A DNA stretch of 64,000 nucleotides from Octopus vulgaris (taxonomy: Eukaryota): assembly GCA_951406725.2 (NCBI GenBank), contig OX597830.1, positions 78,926,001 to 78,990,000 of the forward strand. The letters run 5' to 3'. A program made the translations under genes and the position numbers. Each line of letters starts with the position of its first letter. Positions within the stretch are counted from its first letter, which is position 1. Below are positions 3,216 through 26,901 of this stretch, piece by piece. The notes beneath the pieces were generated by a model. It had not been told where the DNA came from. It saw only the letters and a program-made list of their open reading frames with translations, and ran no database searches.

Positions 3216-3446
3216 GGCGGCGAGTTGGCAGAAACGTTAGCACGCCGGGCGAAATGCTTTGCGGTATATCGTCTGCCGCTACGTTCTGAGTTCAAATTCC
3301 TCCGGGGTCAACTTTGCCTTTCATCCTTTCGGAGTCGATTAAATAAGTACCAGTTACGCACTGGGGTCGATATAATCGACTTAATCCGTTTGTCTGTCCT
3401 TGTTTGTCCTCTCTGTGTTTAACCCCTTGTGGGTAGTAAAGAAATA
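3216..3446 (+). mobile_element. tRNA-derived SINE family A (representative copy)
   Basis: Head GGCGGCGAGCTGGCAGAAACGTTAGC with B-box GAGTTCAAAT, core GCCTTTCATCCTTTCGGGGTCGAT; other copies near 18.6, 20.5, 22.3-23.0, 32.0-32.3, 42.7-43.1, 46.5, 48.0-48.4, 49.7, 52.1-52.4, 56.4 and 60.3 kb. Confidence 0.85.
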
Positions 3447-3708: not shown

Positions 3709-3802
3709 TGCCCCGGGTGAGGGTCGAACTCACGACCTTCAGATTCCTCGGTTTTTGTATGTGATTATGAGACTGACGCGCTGCCTACTGCGCTACCGAG
3801 GC
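3709..3802 (-). tRNA. elongator tRNA-Met(CAT) with 21-nt intron
   Basis: GCCTCGGTAGCGCAGTAGGCAGCGCGTCAGTCTCATA[ATCACATACAAAAACCGAGGA]ATCTGAAGGTCGTGAGTTCGACCCTCACCCGGGGCA; G1-C72 and TTCG T-loop indicate elongator; intron at 37/38. Confidence 0.9.
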
Positions 3803-9392: not shown

Positions 9393-9486
9393 TGCCCCAG
9401 GTGAGGATCGAACTCACGACCTTCAGATTCCTCTAACTTTATGCTTGATTATGAGACTGACGCGCTGCCTACTGCGCTACCGAGGC
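9393..9486 (-). tRNA. elongator tRNA-Met(CAT) with 21-nt intron, second copy
   Basis: Exons nearly identical to 3709-3802; intron ATCAAGCATAAAGTTAGAGGA; long poly-T terminator. Confidence 0.9.
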
Positions 9487-9914: not shown

Positions 9915-11310
9915 TCAACTACCACCATCACCACTATCGCGACTATTACTGCTATTAAAACCAGCACCACAACCACGACTAATACTACTACTACAACCAC
10001 AACCACTGCCCTCCTTCCTATTACTAGTACAACTTCAAACATCACCACCAACACCATCGCTAATGCTGCTATCACCTTTCACAACCAACACCACCATCAC
10101 CACCAACACCATCACCACTAACACCATCACCACCAACACCATCACCACCAACACCATCACCACCAACACCATCACCACCACCACCATCACCACCAATTGG
10201 TTAATCGATTAGTCTGTCAAAGCCCTTGCGTCACAGTCAGTGTCCTTATCAATGACTTACCAATTCGCTTTTTAAGCAACTCTTTCTCCGCAATACGTAT
10301 TACATTTTCACTCTTCCTCTCATTTATTTGTAATAAACCTGAAGTGAAACATAACCAGTGTGCGTGTTTTTATTGGCGGCACGATCCTCCCAAAAGACAT
10401 CAAAATCAACCTCAACGCATGATTTCACGTCAAGAAGCTTGCAAAACAAATACAAAATACAGAGAATTAATGTGGTCTTCATCAGAGTCATGCCTGGCTT
10501 ATAACCAGAAATCTCTCTGACGAAAATAGCGTTAATACTTTAGGTCGTTCAAATTTTTCTCAACCGATCGATAGTCCGATTGAGTAAACCTGTCAACAAT
10601 GAACCTATCATGACTACTGGAAACAACTGTTAGTCAAATTTATGACAGTATCACCATTAATTATAATTAATGGTCATTACATATTTATGTAATTATGCTT
10701 TGTCTTGTATATCACTTTGTATAAAAAAAAATTTAATACAGACCACAACGATTTAGATCGAACGATGTGATCGATTAAAATTTGTGAAGGGCGTCCCCCA
10801 GCATTGCCGCTGTCCAATACCTAGAATCCGAAAAAGAAGAAAGGCAAAAAAGTCTAGTTCATTGGCTTTCATTTCTCATAGAGATAAGAATATTCGAAAA
10901 AATTGCAAACAACTTAAATGAAGTTGAATGAAAATAATCTTCATAAAAATTTAATCTGAAATAAAGAAAATTTTTAAAATATTAAAAAAAAAAGTTGAAT
11001 CATCCCTGGTGGGATTCGAACCCACGACCTCTGGATTAGAAGTCCAGCGCGCTATCCCCTGCGCTACAGGGACAAGACAAGCAGTAATGTTTCTAAATAG
11101 TTTTTAACGAGAAGTCTCAGATGTTTGACAGGTACTGAGGTATTTTGAACTATTTCCTTTGTAAATATACGCCCGCCCGTCCACGTGTACGTCGAAATAT
11201 ACGCGTATAAGGTGAAGGCCGCATATTGTAATCACCAAACAGTTATTGTTACCAAATTTAGTCCATCAGACGCGGAACATTACTATACCTGCAGCTTTAT
11301 GTCGTCAACT
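9915..11310 (+). repeat. segmental duplication copy 2 (contains tRNA-Arg)
   Basis: Colinear diverged match to 1060-2352. Confidence 0.85.
11001..11073 (-). tRNA. tRNA-Arg(TCT), intronless, second copy
   Basis: Same cloverleaf with 3 substitutions; poly-T terminator downstream. Confidence 0.92.
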
Positions 11311-12460
11311 CGTTGTTGCTACATATTAGATTCCGTCTCTAGACTGATCATAATAAGCGACTTCTGTTGTAAATAATTACTTTCTTTTCTCGTATCATCC
11401 ACTCCATATAAGTTTTAACTTATTTAGCAAAATTCGTGTCATTAACCGAGTTGTGTTATTTCCTTTCGGTAATTATTTATTTGCATATTTCCAATCTTAA
11501 GACGTTTCTGGTGTATGAATTGAGAAAGATTTGTGCTGCTATTTCTAGTAGCGCGGATCGTCCTAAAAATACATGGGGGTAAGGCCATGTGGGACAAAAT
11601 ACCTTTACTTACACAGTTACGTCCCTTTACCTTCACAGCTGAAAACCCACGCTGGTTCGGTGTTATGACAATAATATTACTTTTTTACTAGTTTCAGTCA
11701 TTTGACTGTGGCCATGCTGGAGCACCGCCTTTAGTCGAGCAAATCAACCCCAGGACTTGTTCTTTGTGAGCCTAGTACTTATTCTATCGGTCTCTTTTGC
11801 CGAAATGCTAAGTTACGGGGACGTAAACACACCAGCATCGGTTGTCAAGCGATGTTGGGGGGGACAAACAAAGACATACAAACATATACATACACGTACA
11901 TATATATATATATATATACATATATACGACGGGCTTCTTTCAGTTTCCGTCTACCAAATCCACTCACAAGGCTTTGGTCGGCCCAAGGCTATAGTAGAAG
12001 ACACTTGCCCAAGGTGCCATGTAGTGGGACTGAACCCGGAACCATGTGGTTGCTAAACAAGCTACTTACCACACAGCCACTCAATATTGCTTTCAAACTT
12101 TGGTACAAGACCAACAATTTTGGGGAAGGGGTTAGTTGATTATATTGTCCCAACTATCCAACTGGTACTTATTTTATCGATCCAAAAGGATGAAAGGCAA
12201 AGTCGACCTCGGTAGAATTTAGAACGTAATGACGGACGAAATGCCGTAAGCATTTTGTCCGGCGTACTAACGATTTTGCCAGTTCGCCGCCTTTTTCCGT
12301 GACTAATATTATACATGTGAGATGAGTAGCTTGCTTCACAACTACTTGGTTCCAGGTTCAGTCCCACCTTGGTCAAGTATCTTCTACCATAGCCTCTGGC
12401 CGACCAAAGCCTTGTGAGTGGATTTGGTAGGCGGGAACTGAAAGAAGCTCGTCGTATACA

Positions 12461-12562
<102 letters not shown>

Positions 12563-12716
12563 TGTGTGTGTGTGTGTGTGTATTACGGATATGTACTCGC
12601 ATAGCAAGTGATTTGATCTGAGATCGGGTGCTGGAACGAAAACAATTGCAGCGTGGAAGGTGTTTGTAAGCCATTTAAGAAACACACAAAAGCCGTGCTG
12701 AAATGCAGTACGGATT

Positions 12717-12767
12717 TTTGTCAGTGAACAGGTCGCTGTCTTAAAGCGACGAAAATATTTTGACAAA
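12717..12767 (+). ncRNA. hammerhead ribozyme-like motif, G3-C8 core variant
   Basis: Stem I TTTGTCA/TGACAAA, core GTGAACA+G, stem II GTCGC/GCGAC, GAAA, palindromic stem III AATATT. Confidence 0.6.
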
Positions 12768-13012
12768 TTGAACTTAAATGTTGAAGTGAATCGAACGGCT
12801 TTTGTGTTTCTTAAATGGCTTACAAACACCTTCCACGCTGCAATTGTTATATATATATGCCATGCGCATATATGTATATAGTATGTGTATATATATATTA
12901 CGATGATCCGGTTCTTGACTGAAGATGAGGGTTTTATATGTCCTGTCCGTGTTTATTGTATCGTCTTCTAAGAGTTATACGTTCTTGTCCATGTTGTATT
13001 TTTCACATACCT

Positions 13013-13043
<31 letters not shown>

Positions 13044-13436
13044 CTAGCAGTATCGCCCGGCGTTGCTCGGGTTTGTAAGGGAAATAATTATATAAGCATT
13101 TTTAGAGATGTAAAGTATAATAGCCATCTCAATATGGCTAACCACAAAGGGGGTGGGTGTTACTGTAGCTTTTTACGTTCTGAGATTTAATAATAAATTT
13201 TAGAGAGTTACTTCCCTTATATATGTCAAAAATGGATTAAAAATGGGAAAAATTGATGGTAAATTTTTTTTTAATCGTAGACTCATCGTAGACGCGCGCT
13301 AATACCCAGACGGTCTCGATATGAATCACGACTATAAGATACCCGGTTTTGGTTAAACTGCACCGCAAAATGTGGGAGTAGTTAGGAATCTAAATCGTAG
13401 GAGACAGACACACAACCTCACTTTTATATATAAAGA
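13044..13436 (-). mobile_element. non-autonomous Helitron
   Basis: Minus strand 5'-TC...hairpin CCCGAGCAACGCCGGG...CTAG-3', inserted between A and T. Confidence 0.8.
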
Positions 13437-13732
13437 TTTCCTCTATTTACATAATATTGAGGTCTCTTTCTTTCTTTTGTTATCTTACTGTTTTTACCAA
13501 TATACATATATATATATATATATATAAATATATATATAGTTACAGAGATGTACTTGCATAGCAAGTGACTTGATCTGAGATCTTGTGCTGGAACGAAAAC
13601 AGTTGCAGCGTTGAAGGTGTTTATAAGCCATTTAAGAAACACACAAAAACCGTTAGATTCACTTCAACATTTAAATTTAATTTGTGAAAATATTTTCGTC
13701 GCTTTGAGACCGCGACCTGTTAGCACGATATT

Positions 13733-13783
13733 TTTGTCAGTGAACATGTCGCGGTCTGAAAGCGACGAAAATATTTTGGCAAA
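13733..13783 (+). ncRNA. hammerhead-like motif, G3-C8 variant, second copy
   Basis: Same fold; changes confined to loop II, the extra nucleotide and a G-U wobble in stem I. Confidence 0.55.
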
Positions 13784-14224
13784 TTAAATTTAAATGTTGA
13801 AGTGAATGAAACGGTTTTTGTGTGTTTCTTAAATGGCTTACAAACACCTTCCACGCTGCAATATATATATACACACATATATATATATGTATGTATGTAT
13901 GTATGTGTGTATATGTGTATGCATGTATGTGTGTGTGTGTGCGTGTCTGTGCTTGTGATTGTCCTCCACCACTGCTTGACAACGAATGTTGGTTTGTTTA
14001 CATCCCTGTCACCTAGTGGTTTGACAAAGGAAACAGATAGAATAAGTACAATGCTTACAAAAATAAAACTGGAGTTGATTCATTAAACTACAATTCTTCA
14101 AGGCATTGCCCCAGCATGGCCACAGACCAATGGCTGGAAAAAGCAGAAGAATAAAAGAATACATTCTCTGCTTTGGTCATATGTTGAAGGCATGAGAAAG
14201 CTTGAGTTTACATGAGAAGGCCTA

Positions 14225-14706
14225 ACAGACCTGGTAGAAACAGCAGCCAAATCTCCCTCAAATCACACCTTACTGTCTTATGTATGTATATATATATGAG
14301 CCAATGAGGGGGACCTCTACATGGTAGCTAGACCTGGTAGAAATAGCAGCCAAATTTCCCCCAAATCACACCTTACTGTCTTATCTATGTATATATGTAT
14401 GTATGAGCCTATGAGGGAGACCCCTACATGGCAGCTAGACCTGGTAGAAATAGCAGCCAAATTTCCCCCAAATCACACCTTACTGTCTTATCTATGTATA
14501 TATGTATGTATGAGCCTATGAGGGAGACCCCTACATGGCAGCTAGACCTGGTAGAAATAGCAGCCAAATCTCCCTCAAATCACACCTTACTGTCTTATCT
14601 ATGTATATATGTATGTATGAGCCTATGAGGGAGACCCCTACATGGCAGCTAGACATGGTAGAAATAGCAGCCAAATCTCCCTCAAATCACACCTTACTGT
14701 CTTATC
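14225..14706. repeat. 107-bp tandem repeat, about 4.5 copies
   Basis: Units in register at 14321, 14428, 14535 and 14642; near identical. Confidence 0.95.
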
Positions 14707-14766
14707 TTTCTGCTACTTGGATATAGGTGTTATATTCGTCGTAAAAAAACTTTCCTGTCACACACT

Positions 14767-14802
<36 letters not shown>

Positions 14803-15213
14803 CACACACACACACACGCGCACACCCACACCACACCCACTCACACACACGCACGTTAGCTTACAATTTTATTTATATATTTGCGTGTCTGTGTGGAAAG
14901 AGGAAGTGGGAGGCACAGTGAAAGAATCACTCACTACAGTAAGTCAATTACTTTCATTTTATTCGTTGCCCACTGTGTGTGTGCGTTTGCGTATGGTGTA
15001 AACCAGACTAAGAAAAGCATTTGACACACACACCAGAATGTGAGTTTTCTGTAAATTTTGCTTAACTGGAGTTTAAATTTTAAAAACTGGACCTGGCATG
15101 ACGCGATGCATTGTACTCTTAAAAATGCAAGGTAAATTGTAATTGAAGAAATCCTATATTGTAGATTTGTATAACTCCCAAAGGGAGGCAGATAAAATCT
15201 GCCTTTTATAATA

Positions 15214-15266
<53 letters not shown>

Positions 15267-20705: not shown

Positions 20706-23700
20706 TCATCATCATCATCGTTTAACGTCCGCTTTCCATGCTAGCATGGGTTGGACGATTGGCTGAGGGCTGGCGAACCTGATGGCTGCACCAGGCCTCA
20801 ATCTTGATCTGGCAGAGTTTCTGGATGCCCTTCCTAACGCCAACCACTCCGAGAGTGTAGTGGATGCTTTTATGTGCCACCGGCACAGGGCCAGTCAGGC
20901 GGTACTGGCAACGACCTCACTCAAATCTTTTACACATGCCACTGGCACAGGTGCCAGTAAGGCGATGCTGGTAACGATCACCCTCGAATGGTGTCTTTTA
21001 TATATATAGTATATTTGCCACCTAAATGTGGCTAACCTATAAGGGTCGACACTACTGCAGCTTGTAGCTCCAGGAAGACATCTCCTCTAGCTGGCTATTG
21101 ACACACTATCTGTGCCCGATCAGCATTTTAATTATGCAAAAAAGTAAAAAGGTGTGCCACAGGTGTGGATCGAACTCACACCTTCAGATGACTTGATTTC
21201 ATACTTGATTTATAGGACTGACATGCTGCCTACTGCGCTACTGAGGCAGAAGATCGCACTGCTCATATATTATGGTAACAATCTCGGCACAGTATTGCGC
21301 GTGCGTGTGTGTCATGGACAGCATGTCAACTGCACAATCCCCACTCCTTAAAGCTTTGTATTCCTTGCACCCACCTCCCTTTCTTTTTCTCCACAAATAC
21401 AAGACAGGCATACGTAATACTGAAATACGCATTAAATAAACACACGCAGACAAATATATTAATAGAACAAGTTTTTAAAAACATAATAAAAACATACAAT
21501 CAATGAAGAAATAAAAAAAAACAGTAAGATGCTATATGTTATTTTATTAGGTATTTCTGTTTATTTACAAACCTTCAATGAACAGGTCATGTCACAGACG
21601 CTAAACACCGAAAATTTCTGTCTCGCTATTGGCTAAAAATAGAGTTTTTCCTATCTTTAAACCTCTGTAACTTTTTCCTCCATTTTTTTTTCTCCACAGC
21701 ATCATACCTTCATAGCATTTAGACTGGAAAACTACACTGTTATAGCCGATTTTCAAATTTTTTACTTCCTCTTAAATATATGCATATATTTTAAATGAAT
21801 AAACACTAGCCCCTAGGTTTTTTCTTAGTTATTATTTTGGGATGTGTATATTCGTTCTTCCAGTCACATTTCTTCATCATCATCATGATCATCATTTAGC
21901 GTCCGCTTTCCATGCTGGTATGGGTTGGACGTTGCAACTGGGGTCTGGGAAGCCAGAAGGCTGCACCAGGCCCAGTCTGATCTGGCAATGTTTCTATGGC
22001 TGGATGCCCTTCCTAACGCCAACCACTCCATGAGTGTAGTGAGTGCTTTTTACGTGCCACCTGCACAGGTGCCAGACAAGTCTGGCAAACGGCCACGGTC
22101 GGGTGGTGCTTTTTACGTGCCACCGGCACGGAGGCCAGGTGAGGCTGGCAACGGCCACAATCGGATGGTGCTTTTTACGTGCCACCGGCACGGAAGTCAG
22201 TCAGGGCGGCACTGGCAACGGCCACATTCGGATGGTTCTCTTATGTGCCACCAGCACTGATATCACAGCGACAATTTCCATACATTTATTTGAAAAAAAC
22301 TGGCCTTGTGCCAAAATTTGAAACTATTACTATTATTATTAAGGTGGGGAACTGGCAGAATTGTTAGCAGGCTGAGCAAAATGCTTAGCAGTGTTTTCGC
22401 CTGTTGCTACAGTCTGAGTTCAAATTCCACCAAGGTTGACTTTGCCTTTTAATCCTTTCAGGGTTGATGAATTAAGCACCAGAGAAACACTGGGATCGAT
22501 GTAATCAACTAGTGCCCTCCCTCAAAATTTAAGGCCTTGTGACTGTAGTACAAAGGATTATTATTATTATTTATTTATTTGTTGCCCACAGGGGAGGTAA
22601 ACATAGAGGTGACAAACAAGGACAGGCAAAGGGATTAAGTCGATTACATTGACCCCAGTGCATAACTGGTACTTATTTAATCGACTCCGAAAGGATGAAA
22701 GGCAAAGTCGACCTCGGCGGAATTTGAACTCAGAACATTATGGCAGACGAAATACCGCTAAGCATTTCGCCCAGTGTGCTAACAGTTCTGCCAGCTTGCC
22801 GCCCTTATAATTATTATTATGAAGGCAGTGAGCTGGCAGAATTGTTAGCACGCCAGGCGAAATGCTTAGCAATAATTTGCCATTCATCCTTTCAGGGCTG
22901 ATAAATCAAGTACCAGTAAAATACTGGGGTCAATGGAATCAACTAGTCCTCGCTGCCAAAATTTCAGGCCTTGTGCCTATTGTAGAAAGGATTATTATTA
23001 TTATTATTATTACTATACAGGTATTGTGTATGGAGCACTACATTATCTAATACGAGTTTTCCCTTTTTCAATGGTAGTGTGAGATTTGAAAGAGATTCCA
23101 CTTGCTATTTCTAACAAGTCAAGTAACTCTCTTGAGATTTTCTCATAGGCTAATTTAAAATACATTTTGTTAAAAAGGTTGTTGTCCTAGTTTTCCTTTT
23201 TCATAAAAGGAGACAGGTGAAATAAAAGAATACCAACATACTTGTGCTAGATAAGCAACTATTTCTTTTGAGGTCACGGTCAGGCAGAGGGGATATGGAC
23301 ATAAAAAAATGCAGTTCATATGAGAAACATTCATATTAAAAACTTGCAGTTTAGCCCGGTGTTGCCCAGGATTAAGTTGGGATTATTAAATCAATCAAGC
23401 GCTTTGTTTCAAACCAAACTAAGTAACACCGACATCAAATTTCAGCGAAATCCATTGAAATTAGTTAGCATTTGGCATAAGGAATCAGTTTATCGATTTT
23501 TCCACTTGTTGATTTTTTTTGTTTTTTTGGAAAGCTTAAAGCATTCAGTGATCCCATGAGTCCTAAGTAATGTTGGCATCAAGTTTGAACAAAATACATC
23601 AAAATTGGTAAAAGTTATGGTTGAAAATGGGGTGTAGCTAATTTTAGTGGGAAATCCTTTAAGGAATTGGTTTATCGATTTTTCATCCTGATTGAAAACC

Positions 23701-24619: not shown

Positions 24620-26901
24620 TCTTCGTTGGTTTAACATTCACTTTTCCATGCCAGCATGAGTCAAATGAAATACTGAGATGGATTTTCTATGTCCAAAAGC
24701 CCTTCCTGTCGTCAACCTTCACTTGTTTACAGGTGTGGCAATATTTCCCCATGACCAGACATCACACAGTGTCAATGTAAGAAGACAGTAACACGCACAC
24801 ACATAAGATGAAAATGTGGTGCAGTGAGATGATGAAGGAACACATGGAAAGATAAGAAAAAAAAGAAATCATTTACACAGTAGATGCAGACCTCATCAGC
24901 TATCAACAAAGTATCATCACAGTTTCCACACCTTCGAATAACATTATTCAATTTGATGATGTCAGCAATGTAAGCTGCTGGGAAATAAATGAGCAAACAT
25001 GATAGATGAACACAAACAGGAAAAATAAAACAAGTACAATAACAAAAAAGAATAAGGCCTCGAGACTGGAAAGTAGATAAAGCCAAATCTACTCTATTAC
25101 AAGTATTTGTGTTAGATCTTCCTTTGAGGGTGATTTCCTCCCTTCTTTCCACCCATCTCAGAAGTCAAGAACTGTGTCGCAGCACTGCCCTGACACCCCT
25201 CATTTAATCATTAACCCCCTAGCATTTAGACCAGTGGTTCTCAACCATTTTTTGCCTATGAACTCCTTTGATTCCTATTTTATTCAGGTAGGCCACTCCT
25301 AGCCATTCACTGTTTTTAAAAATCCTATTTTTATAATTAAATATTATTAGGAACTGTTTTAATAAAATTGTTGCAATATTTGGTGTATTGTCGAAACATA
25401 AGCAATTTATTGCTCATAGATTTCGTTTTTGGATTTGGTTTGCAAGATTCTTTATATGAGTTCGTGTGTTGAAGCATATTCTGGTGTGTCTGGGGAGAGT
25501 CATTTTCTTTTTGTGCCTTATTATGTAACACACTTACCAGTAAAATTTCCACTTGTTTCTTATTTTTATTTATCCTAAAATTTTCTTGCAACCTTTTCAA
25601 TAGTCTTGACTCTTTCAAGACTATTGAAAAGGTTGCAAGACGCAACGAAAATTTTAGGAAAATTAAAATAAGAAAAAAGTGGAAATTTTACTGGTAAGTG
25701 TGTTATATTATAAGGCACAAAAAGAAAATGACTCTCCCCAGACACAACAGAAATTGCTCATAGACTTTAACAAAAAAATCTTGTATGGACCCCTAGGTGT
25801 CATAAAGTCCCAGGCTGAGAATCACTGATTTAAATCAACCTTATTTGGCCCAAATATTCTACCTCTTTTGTGTTCAAACTGGCCAGATCCAGCCTCTCAC
25901 ACCTACCCTACAATATCATTCAGAAAATAGGTTGTCGCATCATTGAAATCCTGAAGCTACGAGATAATGCATGATTAATTCAAAACAATGTGAATAAATT
26001 AGCATTGCATTTGACAAAATAATTTAAATGCTAAAGTGTTAAATGAAAAAGGAATGTCCGATCAAGGAAAGAACACTTTTGAACTTAGAGATCTGCTCAA
26101 TCAATATCATCGACAACAAATGTGTCTGTAGATTCTATGATTTTTCTCAAAGACTGTTTCACTAACATCAACAAATATCCTCGTTAATCTTCTAACCATA
26201 ACCTTTGATCACATTCTAATTACTGAATATTTCAACTAATTTCTCTTCTTTCTCTTTTACTTCTTTTTATTCCAGATTCAGCTTCCGACAAGGTAAGTAG
26301 GAAATCCTTCTTCTATTTATAACACGTTGATTGTACCTAATTGAGCACAGGCAATGTTTCGCAAGCATGGGAAAGTGGACATTAAGTGATTATGATACAT
26401 ACATACATGCATACATCCATATAGACATATGTACGTACGTAAACCCAGTATGAATCAGAAAAAGAACTGAAATAGTTATAATATTACAAAGCCTACTTTG
26501 AGTTAAATAAAAATGTAAGCATTCCTTCTATGGTTTTAATGTACAGAAAGTAAGCCATTAGAGACGCACACACACATGCACACACTTATACACGCACACA
26601 TCCACATGCCAAAATCACCAACCCTTATCCACATATACATGCGCGCACATGCACCTTCGTTTTGGGATCACCAGTACTTTATTATCTCCCCTTCTTCCTA
26701 GCTCTCCTGTCTAACTACCTTTGTCCAACCAGTCACCATGATTGACTGCTAACTCCACAAGTTTTTTTATTCTCTCTGTTTATTTCCTCGTGTTCCTTTC
26801 TGTTGAAGAGCATAGGCTCGAAACGTAAAAGACTTCCTCACCTTCCCGAGCATCAAACTAATACACCTGTCTTCATCTTTTGTTTTTCTATAAATTTCAA
26901 C

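Follow-up and report, generated by a model that had tools for sequence, protein, structure and literature searches.

The locus raises the question of which kind of element carries two hammerhead-like motifs whose core pair between positions 3 and 8 reads G-C, and whether this arrangement is a family character or a mutation of individual copies. The C3-G8 pair of hammerhead ribozymes is a tertiary contact that structural work brought to light and that has been probed by exchanging the two bases in the laboratory. The window is a stretch of 64,000 nucleotides of Octopus vulgaris DNA (GenBank assembly GCA_951406725.2, contig OX597830.1, positions 78,926,001 to 78,990,000 of the forward strand), and coordinates given without a locus name refer to it.

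Two Hammerhead-like Motifs with a G3-C8 Core

Both motifs (Table 1) have a 7-bp stem I, the core GUGAACA, one extra nucleotide, a 5-bp stem II, GAAA and the palindrome AAUAUU, with cleavage predicted after UUU, which agrees in position and description with the original prediction. The copies differ, as it also stated, in loop II (two positions), the extra nucleotide (G in copy 1, U in copy 2) and a wobble in stem I (U-A to U-G), and nowhere else within the motif. The extra U is private to copy 2, with G found in 27/27 siblings among those listed. A strict scan of both strands of the window gives the two copies as the sole matches with a Watson-Crick 3-8 pair. A relaxed scan of the window returns one more weak motif at 25624, a U3-A8 hammerhead-like element (25617-25665, forward strand).

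The features of type I hammerheads of Penelope-like elements (PLEs) are present, with stems I and II, G10.1-C11.1, GAAA, A15.1-U16.1, a palindromic helix III and an NUH site, and the 3-8 pair is Watson-Crick as in minimal type I PLE hammerheads, here as G-C. The CUGANGA core of the minimal type I PLE hammerhead is replaced by GUGAACA throughout the family, and the octopus motif is therefore a variant and not a plain minimal PLE hammerhead. Rfam at the gathering score detects only tRNAs in the window and neither motif. The folding z scores, calculated with 500 dinucleotide shuffles, are -3.3 for copy 1 and -1.9 for copy 2, and the 6-bp stem III palindrome duplex contributes just -0.2 kcal/mol. 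Within the whole insertion the stem pairs of copy 1 have predicted probabilities of 0.57-0.94, and the hammerhead stems of copy 2 have a predicted probability of 0.0 within its fold-back. The inverted arm of copy 2 reaches the core and can thus pair with most of the hammerhead sequence; the prediction for this fold-back is that it ties up the ribozyme and blocks the hammerhead fold. The inverted partial copies expected ahead of each motif are found there, and they carry ~59 nt that are absent from the direct arm. An abundant SINE-like repeat lies directly upstream of copy 1 as an inverted pair 348 nt apart (11864-12016 and 12365-12517).

Table 1. Positions of the two inserts, their hammerhead-like motifs and the repeat that carries copy 2, in window coordinates
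Feature	Position	Strand	Remark
Copy 1 inverted arm: 3' part of pLTR with ~59-nt tail (12582-12640)	12582-12696	-	first 31 codons of element ORF
Copy 1 direct arm: pLTR stub running from the 5' boundary shared across the family as far as the short 3' end	12703-12848	+	ORF ATG 12815
Copy 1 minimal type I hammerhead-like motif, G3-C8 core	12717-12767	+	putative cut after 12760
Copy 1 stem I	12717-12723 / 12761-12767	+	
Copy 1 core GUGAACA	12724-12730	+	
Copy 1 extra nucleotide G	12731	+	
Copy 1 stem II	12732-12736 / 12746-12750	+	sixth pair possible
Copy 1 GAAAAUAUUU	12751-12760	+	
Composite Helitron-like repeat of 2.2 kb with copy 2 inside	13044-15216	-	5' TC, 3' hairpin + CTAG, between A and T
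Copy 2 inverted arm, including its tail (13540-13601)	13540-13721	-	extends back into core
Copy 2 direct arm: pLTR stub	13722-13862	+	ORF ATG 13833
Copy 2 G3-C8 hammerhead-like motif, same layout as copy 1	13733-13783	+	putative cut after 13776

The Inserts Are Almost Certainly Stubs of a Penelope-like Element

The genome searched comprises 2.8 Gb in 227 contigs. Each match resembling copy 1 is an insertion of its own, frequently within a TA run; the inversion points vary or the inversion is absent, and 28/29 of these matches have G3-C8. Upstream of the pseudo-LTR (pLTR) is a microsatellite-rich 3' UTR of ~1 kb, and beyond it are a GIY-YIG domain and RT motifs. The copy L126 is arranged pLTR-ORF-pLTR with the motif at 3242 and 7503; its ORF contains stops and a frameshift, and its first 31 residues are those that the inverted arm of copy 1 in the window encodes. 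The search of genome copies for an RT + GIY-YIG ORF, called for in the original prediction, also finds the motif after such ORFs in L093, L124, L125 and L127-L129, with L093 being a long copy that has an inverted partner. L124 holds a 1025-amino acid open frame, a part of which (P0002) shows YVDD and a CX3CxxC linker, with CQSNCAVC preceding a GIY-YIG domain that scores 25.5 bits in Pfam against a cut-off of 22.6. The Pfam RT domain has no match in P0001-P0003, and the RT assignment is made from sequence motifs and from the source names of two homologues (RT-domain proteins). The best named homologue of the element protein is labelled Octopus vulgaris and shows 58% identity.

The element has the single long ORF with RT (by motifs and homologue names) and C-terminal GIY-YIG that defines EN+ PLEs, the ORF is flanked by pLTRs in L126 with the same layout in the relatives L132 and L207, and copies show 5' truncation, an inverted copy with a variable junction and a one-sided tail. 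The window inserts are almost certainly 5'-truncated, 5'-inverted pLTR stubs of an EN+ PLE, and the architecture of the element is ordinary for PLEs. The terminal repeat of a Penelope-like element and the 5' inversion that had been proposed are both borne out, the first by the motif standing on both sides of the RT + GIY-YIG ORF in L126 and the second by inversion points that differ among insertions. Unrelated frames adjoin family copies at L091:8782-9405, L093:5437-6492 and in the downstream flank of L037, and these we take to be an unrelated RT fragment and a Tc1/mariner-like transposase.

Copy 2 Is Carried by a Helitron-like Repeat

Helitrons have a 5' TC and a 3' hairpin followed by CTRR, insert between A and T, and form tandem arrays. 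The ends at 13044 and 15216 of the repeat surrounding copy 2 (TC, hairpin-CTAG, A/T) are presumably Helitron ends, and by these rules both the ends and the arrays of the carrier fit, the latter running head-to-tail with a period of ~2,182 bp at G000:C2:206.158-206.184 Mb. The carrier has a second 5'-type end at 13436 and four internal 107-bp tandem units. It is young, with at least 639 copies, and seems to be an extension of a 393-bp unit (13044-13436); besides the PLE fold-back it contains the 107-bp tandem and a repeat of greater age. The 29 best fetched relatives of copy 2 are 29/29 other loci with the same flanks, up to 2.2 kb, and the carrier junction has 639 genome matches. Since the flanks are copied as a unit, copy 2 is a passenger of the Helitron-like repeat and not a separate PLE insertion at this position. 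The two fold-backs of the original prediction are real, but they are not two independent local PLE insertions. Among the sampled sites 7/77 are carrier-borne, and ~90% of family copies lie outside the carrier. A fixed fold-back element was considered and is refuted by the linkage to the ORF and by the variable junctions, the uniform top matches being carrier-borne.

G3-C8 Is the Family State

The outcomes named beforehand as contrary to the prediction were a CUGANGA consensus, with the window copies merely mutated, and stems that are not conserved across copies; genome-wide, the family has GUGAACA as its core, and its stems are conserved. An exact 19-mer pattern has 7,054 genome matches, with G3-C8 in 6,459, a base other than G at position 3 in 209, and G3 with a base other than C at position 8 in 386. 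The reversed 19-nt control pattern has 0 genome matches, so the core pattern is not a chance occurrence. A hand count of 100 listed non-G3 matches gives 57 A3-C8, 26 U3-C8, 7 C3-C8, 5 U3-G8 and 5 other, with C3-G8 at 0 among these 100. The heavily CpG-decayed, oldest-looking subfamily has C8 in 90/100 matches listed and G3-C8 in 27/30 fetched, and G3-C8 is the state of the family from the oldest-looking to the youngest subfamily. Changes at the level of subfamilies affect 5/9 loop II sites, one wobble and 8/~75 flank sites and 0 of the other 41 motif sites, a post hoc contrast with a Fisher p of ~0.05.

The 3-8 Pair Covaries Among Related Families

A sister family in the same genome, L132, has 1312-amino acid frames with 51% identity and a C3-G8 core, but with C at position 9, and it is because of this C9 that the strict scan misses its motif. 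The L132 family is very young, with sites at L132:1637 and 6225 (forward strand) and an Asn-rich insert. Among 14 metagenome loci the motif is found at the equivalent place in four (three by scan and L207 by eye); the other ten show no motif, and most of these are without the pLTR region. L205 and L209 are C3-G8, and L206 and L207 are U3-A8, with L206 also having C at position 9. The 3-8 pair is Watson-Crick in 6/6 related families in three forms, and it covaries, as three of the five relatives have C3-G8 and two U3-A8 with the octopus family at G3-C8. The stems of the relatives are unrelated in sequence yet paired, with two of the five having weaker stems. U4, G5, A6 and the GAA of the single-stranded core are invariant across the six families, and the C9 of L132 and L206 means that the core is not strictly conserved in the clade.

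In a 9-row alignment 92% of cells are paired and 7/10 pairs have changed on both sides, compared with 14-45% paired in slid controls; five of its rows come from the octopus G3-C8 family and L207 is excluded, and the rows are not independent. Another repeat family of this genome contains a U3-A8 minimal hammerhead (L139:8064-8648 and L133:9845).

Mismatched G3·G8 Copies

Copies with G3·G8 number 223, ~3% of the pattern matches, with 3/60 in an unbiased sample and 4/100 in the oldest-looking subfamily. They occur at 3-5% in old and young subfamilies alike, are scattered on the pLTR tree, where 13 rows call for 11 changes, and include two long ORF-bearing copies, L135 (3119) and L143 (6198). In a tree limited to the octopus G3-C8 family and three relatives, L135 and L143 nest with a G3-C8 copy (98/99), and the longer-branched copies are G3-C8, with the root inside the family unfixed. 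The recurrence of G3·G8, including in long ORF-bearing copies, argues that a copy can be made without the 3-8 pair.

The change from C8 to G (223) is far above the reciprocal G-to-C change at position 3 (~15, extrapolated), and C-to-G is found at position 8 in 3/60 compared with 0/780 at other C sites. G8 is over-represented among A6 mutants (19/72, some in local clusters), and U3 is over-represented among G8 copies (5/6 versus 26/83). The C8-to-G excess may reflect selection, recombination with a master present as a minority, or a site at which replication errs often. Two further ideas about these copies were considered and are unsupported. Survival of G3·G8 as an ancestral intermediate does not fit its count of 4/100 in the oldest-looking subfamily, its scatter on the pLTR tree and the nesting of the long copies among G3-C8, and enrichment in long copies does not fit counts of 1/30 by eye (0 by filter) versus 4/49.

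Ends of the Copies

Arms were sampled with a downstream 21-mer that has 11,473 genome matches, the first 100 places giving 92 arms, of which 83 remain after removing 9 that are carrier-borne. The 3' ends fall at +121-130 in 35/83 and at +176-190 in 47/83, two classes ~59 nt apart, the longer of which is bounded by the end of the reference. Fold-backs with both arms sampled have the tail on exactly one arm in 19/19. The stubs number thousands and are 150-210 bp long in TA-rich DNA. No arm in the sample (0/83) starts at the predicted cut (+35 to +39) and 68/83 start upstream of it, which indicates that the copies are made from uncut RNA; the ends of these thousands of stubs thereby map the template RNA.

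The 5' boundary is sharp: 37/83 arms start between 20 and 29 nt upstream of the core, and no more than 4 extend beyond this. At position 12703 of the window it coincides with an AG after a pyrimidine tract and a branch-point-like word, and it can be likened to the situation in Drosophila virilis, where an intron end adjoins helix I (PMC4209133). A shared first exon ahead of the AG, as spliced copies would have, is absent from all 65 boundary contexts, in which a cap-derived extra G is indistinguishable from a templated variant. A transcription start is for this reason just as good a reading of the boundary as a splice acceptor.

Comparison with Known Hammerheads and PLEs

Cervera and de la Pena (2014) describe minimal type I hammerheads in the pLTRs of metazoan PLEs (PMC4209133), and the octopus motif resembles these in its pLTR site just ahead of the ORF start, its short palindromic helix III, its thousands of mostly solitary copies, the extra nucleotide between 9 and 10.1, G10.1-C11.1 and the frequent U17. 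It differs in the core, as their consensus is CUGANGAH and the octopus family has GUGAACA with G as the extra nucleotide. The core variants given there are U3-A8 in Schistosoma and one U3·G8 row in Saccoglossus; the Fig. S3 rows examined contain none starting with GUGA, and the descriptors in the same account would miss G3-C8.

In the Poseidon element PAc of Anolis carolinensis the double change C3G/G8C partly restores cleavage, with protein needed (Frangieh et al. 2024, PMC11167929), so the laboratory rescue cited in the original prediction is upheld as a partial one in a PLE hammerhead. The octopus family is like PAc in the AT-rich targets, in copies that derive from unprocessed RNA with no ends at the ribozyme cut site, and apparently in two internal RT start sites within the ORF start that define an optional tail. 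The differences are that PAc is naturally C3-G8 with G3-C8 only engineered, whereas the octopus family is naturally G3-C8; that the tail is 30-40 bp in PAc and ~59 bp in octopus; that the ATG is at stem II in PAc and ~55 nt after the predicted cut in octopus; and that the octopus ORF has a CX3CxxC linker before EN, unlike PAc (PMC11167929).

Perreault et al. (2011) report natural 3-8 covariation with activity expected to be kept, and the text seen names only C3-G8 to U3-A8 (PMC3088659); the octopus family likewise shows natural covariation at this pair. Among EN+ PLEs the family is like the Neptune/Nematis type (Craig et al. 2021, PMC8557442) in having its GIY-YIG at the C terminus, a cysteine linker that separates RT from EN, a bias towards (TA)n, and an inverted 5'-truncated copy with a one-sided tail. 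The CQSNCAVC linker and TA-run flanks fit the CX2-5CxxC and microsatellite-bias features, and the linker does not separate Neptune from Nematis. Three sequence tags of the octopus family are not found in the searched supplement of PMC8557442. The PLE hallmarks that match the octopus end classes and one-sided tail are given in PMC8557442 and PMC11167929.

G3-C8 is mentioned as an aside in PMC3884650, and the hammerhead-variant literature searched, with partial coverage, contains no report of a natural G3-C8 family. Provisionally, the octopus G3-C8 is the occurrence in nature of a variant for which the publications searched show laboratory constructs only, and a family fixed for it in thousands of copies is a natural counterpart of the laboratory 3-8 swaps. 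Neither CUGANGA/UUGANAA descriptors nor Rfam at the gathering score can pick up G3-C8, and ribozyme censuses therefore likely undercount. Elements that are young and almost intact, the C3-G8 sister family of this genome, natural G3·G8 and U3·G8 variants and the thousands of stubs together provide a test set for the role of the PLE hammerhead.

Interpretation and Alternatives

The favored reading is that the inserts are pLTR stubs of an RT + GIY-YIG PLE whose minimal type I hammerhead has its 3-8 pair fixed as G-C and probably still self-cleaves weakly, as a dimer or with the assistance of protein. Retention of catalysis by the G3-C8 motif is judged somewhat more likely than not. Most probably an RNA that begins at the sharp boundary would be bound by the protein of the element, which would nick TA-rich DNA, with the cDNA beginning at one of two sites in the ORF start. 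Reverse transcription back to the 5' end of the RNA would give the 150-210-bp stubs, and a template switch would give the inverted arm, with the tail present on one arm only; all of these steps are modeled on PAc and the end classes. Cutting by the hammerhead would be slow, would involve a dimer or help from protein, and would spare the RNAs from which copies are made. Since copies come from uncut RNA, any cleavage would act elsewhere, in the trimming of read-through or tandem transcripts, and not in setting the 5' ends of copies. Copy 2 would afterwards have been captured and spread by the Helitron-like repeat.

A possible alternative, which we consider rather doubtful, retains the same PLE pLTR with a motif that no longer cuts, its fold being kept because it binds the element's protein, positions the start of RT or serves as a promoter or splice signal, or being merely inherited, with G3-C8 having drifted to fixation in a master lineage. 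The absence of copies beginning at the cut site and the recurrence of G3·G8 on all subfamily backgrounds are what such a motif would give, and parts of the published work point the same way, as a PLE can do without ribozyme activity in vitro, insertion by PAc hammerhead mutants being unaffected (PMC11167929), and PLE hammerheads cleave poorly in vitro (PMC4209133). It is harder to reconcile with two transversions that restore a Watson-Crick pair, which are unlikely without selection on the tertiary pair, and with the Watson-Crick 3-8 pair in 6/6 families and the invariance of U4, G5, A6 and GAA.

A retrozyme, an ORF-less tandem repeat amplified through self-cleaved circular RNA, would account for a minimal type I hammerhead in a short, abundant, non-coding insert, and retrozymes are related to PLE pLTRs (bioRxiv 10.64898/2026.07.22.740005). 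It is nevertheless very unlikely, as the stubs, which occur singly at scattered sites or as inverted pairs, include the PLE ORF start and have ends away from the cut site; the ORF-less head-to-tail hammerhead units of non-LTR retrozymes are lacking, and the tandem arrays seen are those of the 2.2-kb carrier. A non-autonomous fold-back DNA element (MITE-like) or a piece of a Helitron with a chance likeness to a hammerhead can practically be dismissed, because the shared junction and flanks of the best matches of copy 2, with its 639 junction matches, stem from the carrier, most copies lie outside it and have variable inversion points or none, and the motif flanks an RT + GIY-YIG ORF.

A bolder extension of the favored reading, in which the motif retains activity, is put forward tentatively. 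The octopus family could represent a natural high-copy active hammerhead with a reversed G3-C8 pair, selected through the whole history of the family and completing a natural C-G/U-A/G-C series within one retroelement clade, with the recurrent G3·G8 copies and the excess of U3·G8 being cleavage-dead escapes and rescues that record the selection.

Other Features of the Window

The tRNAs detected in the window are all on the reverse strand, at 2047-2119, 11001-11073, 3709-3802, 9393-9486 and 21155-21247, and comprise two genes for tRNA-Arg(TCT) together with three tRNA-like genes that contain an intron and whose anticodon region reads CAT. The arrangement of these five genes suggests a duplicated tRNA cluster.
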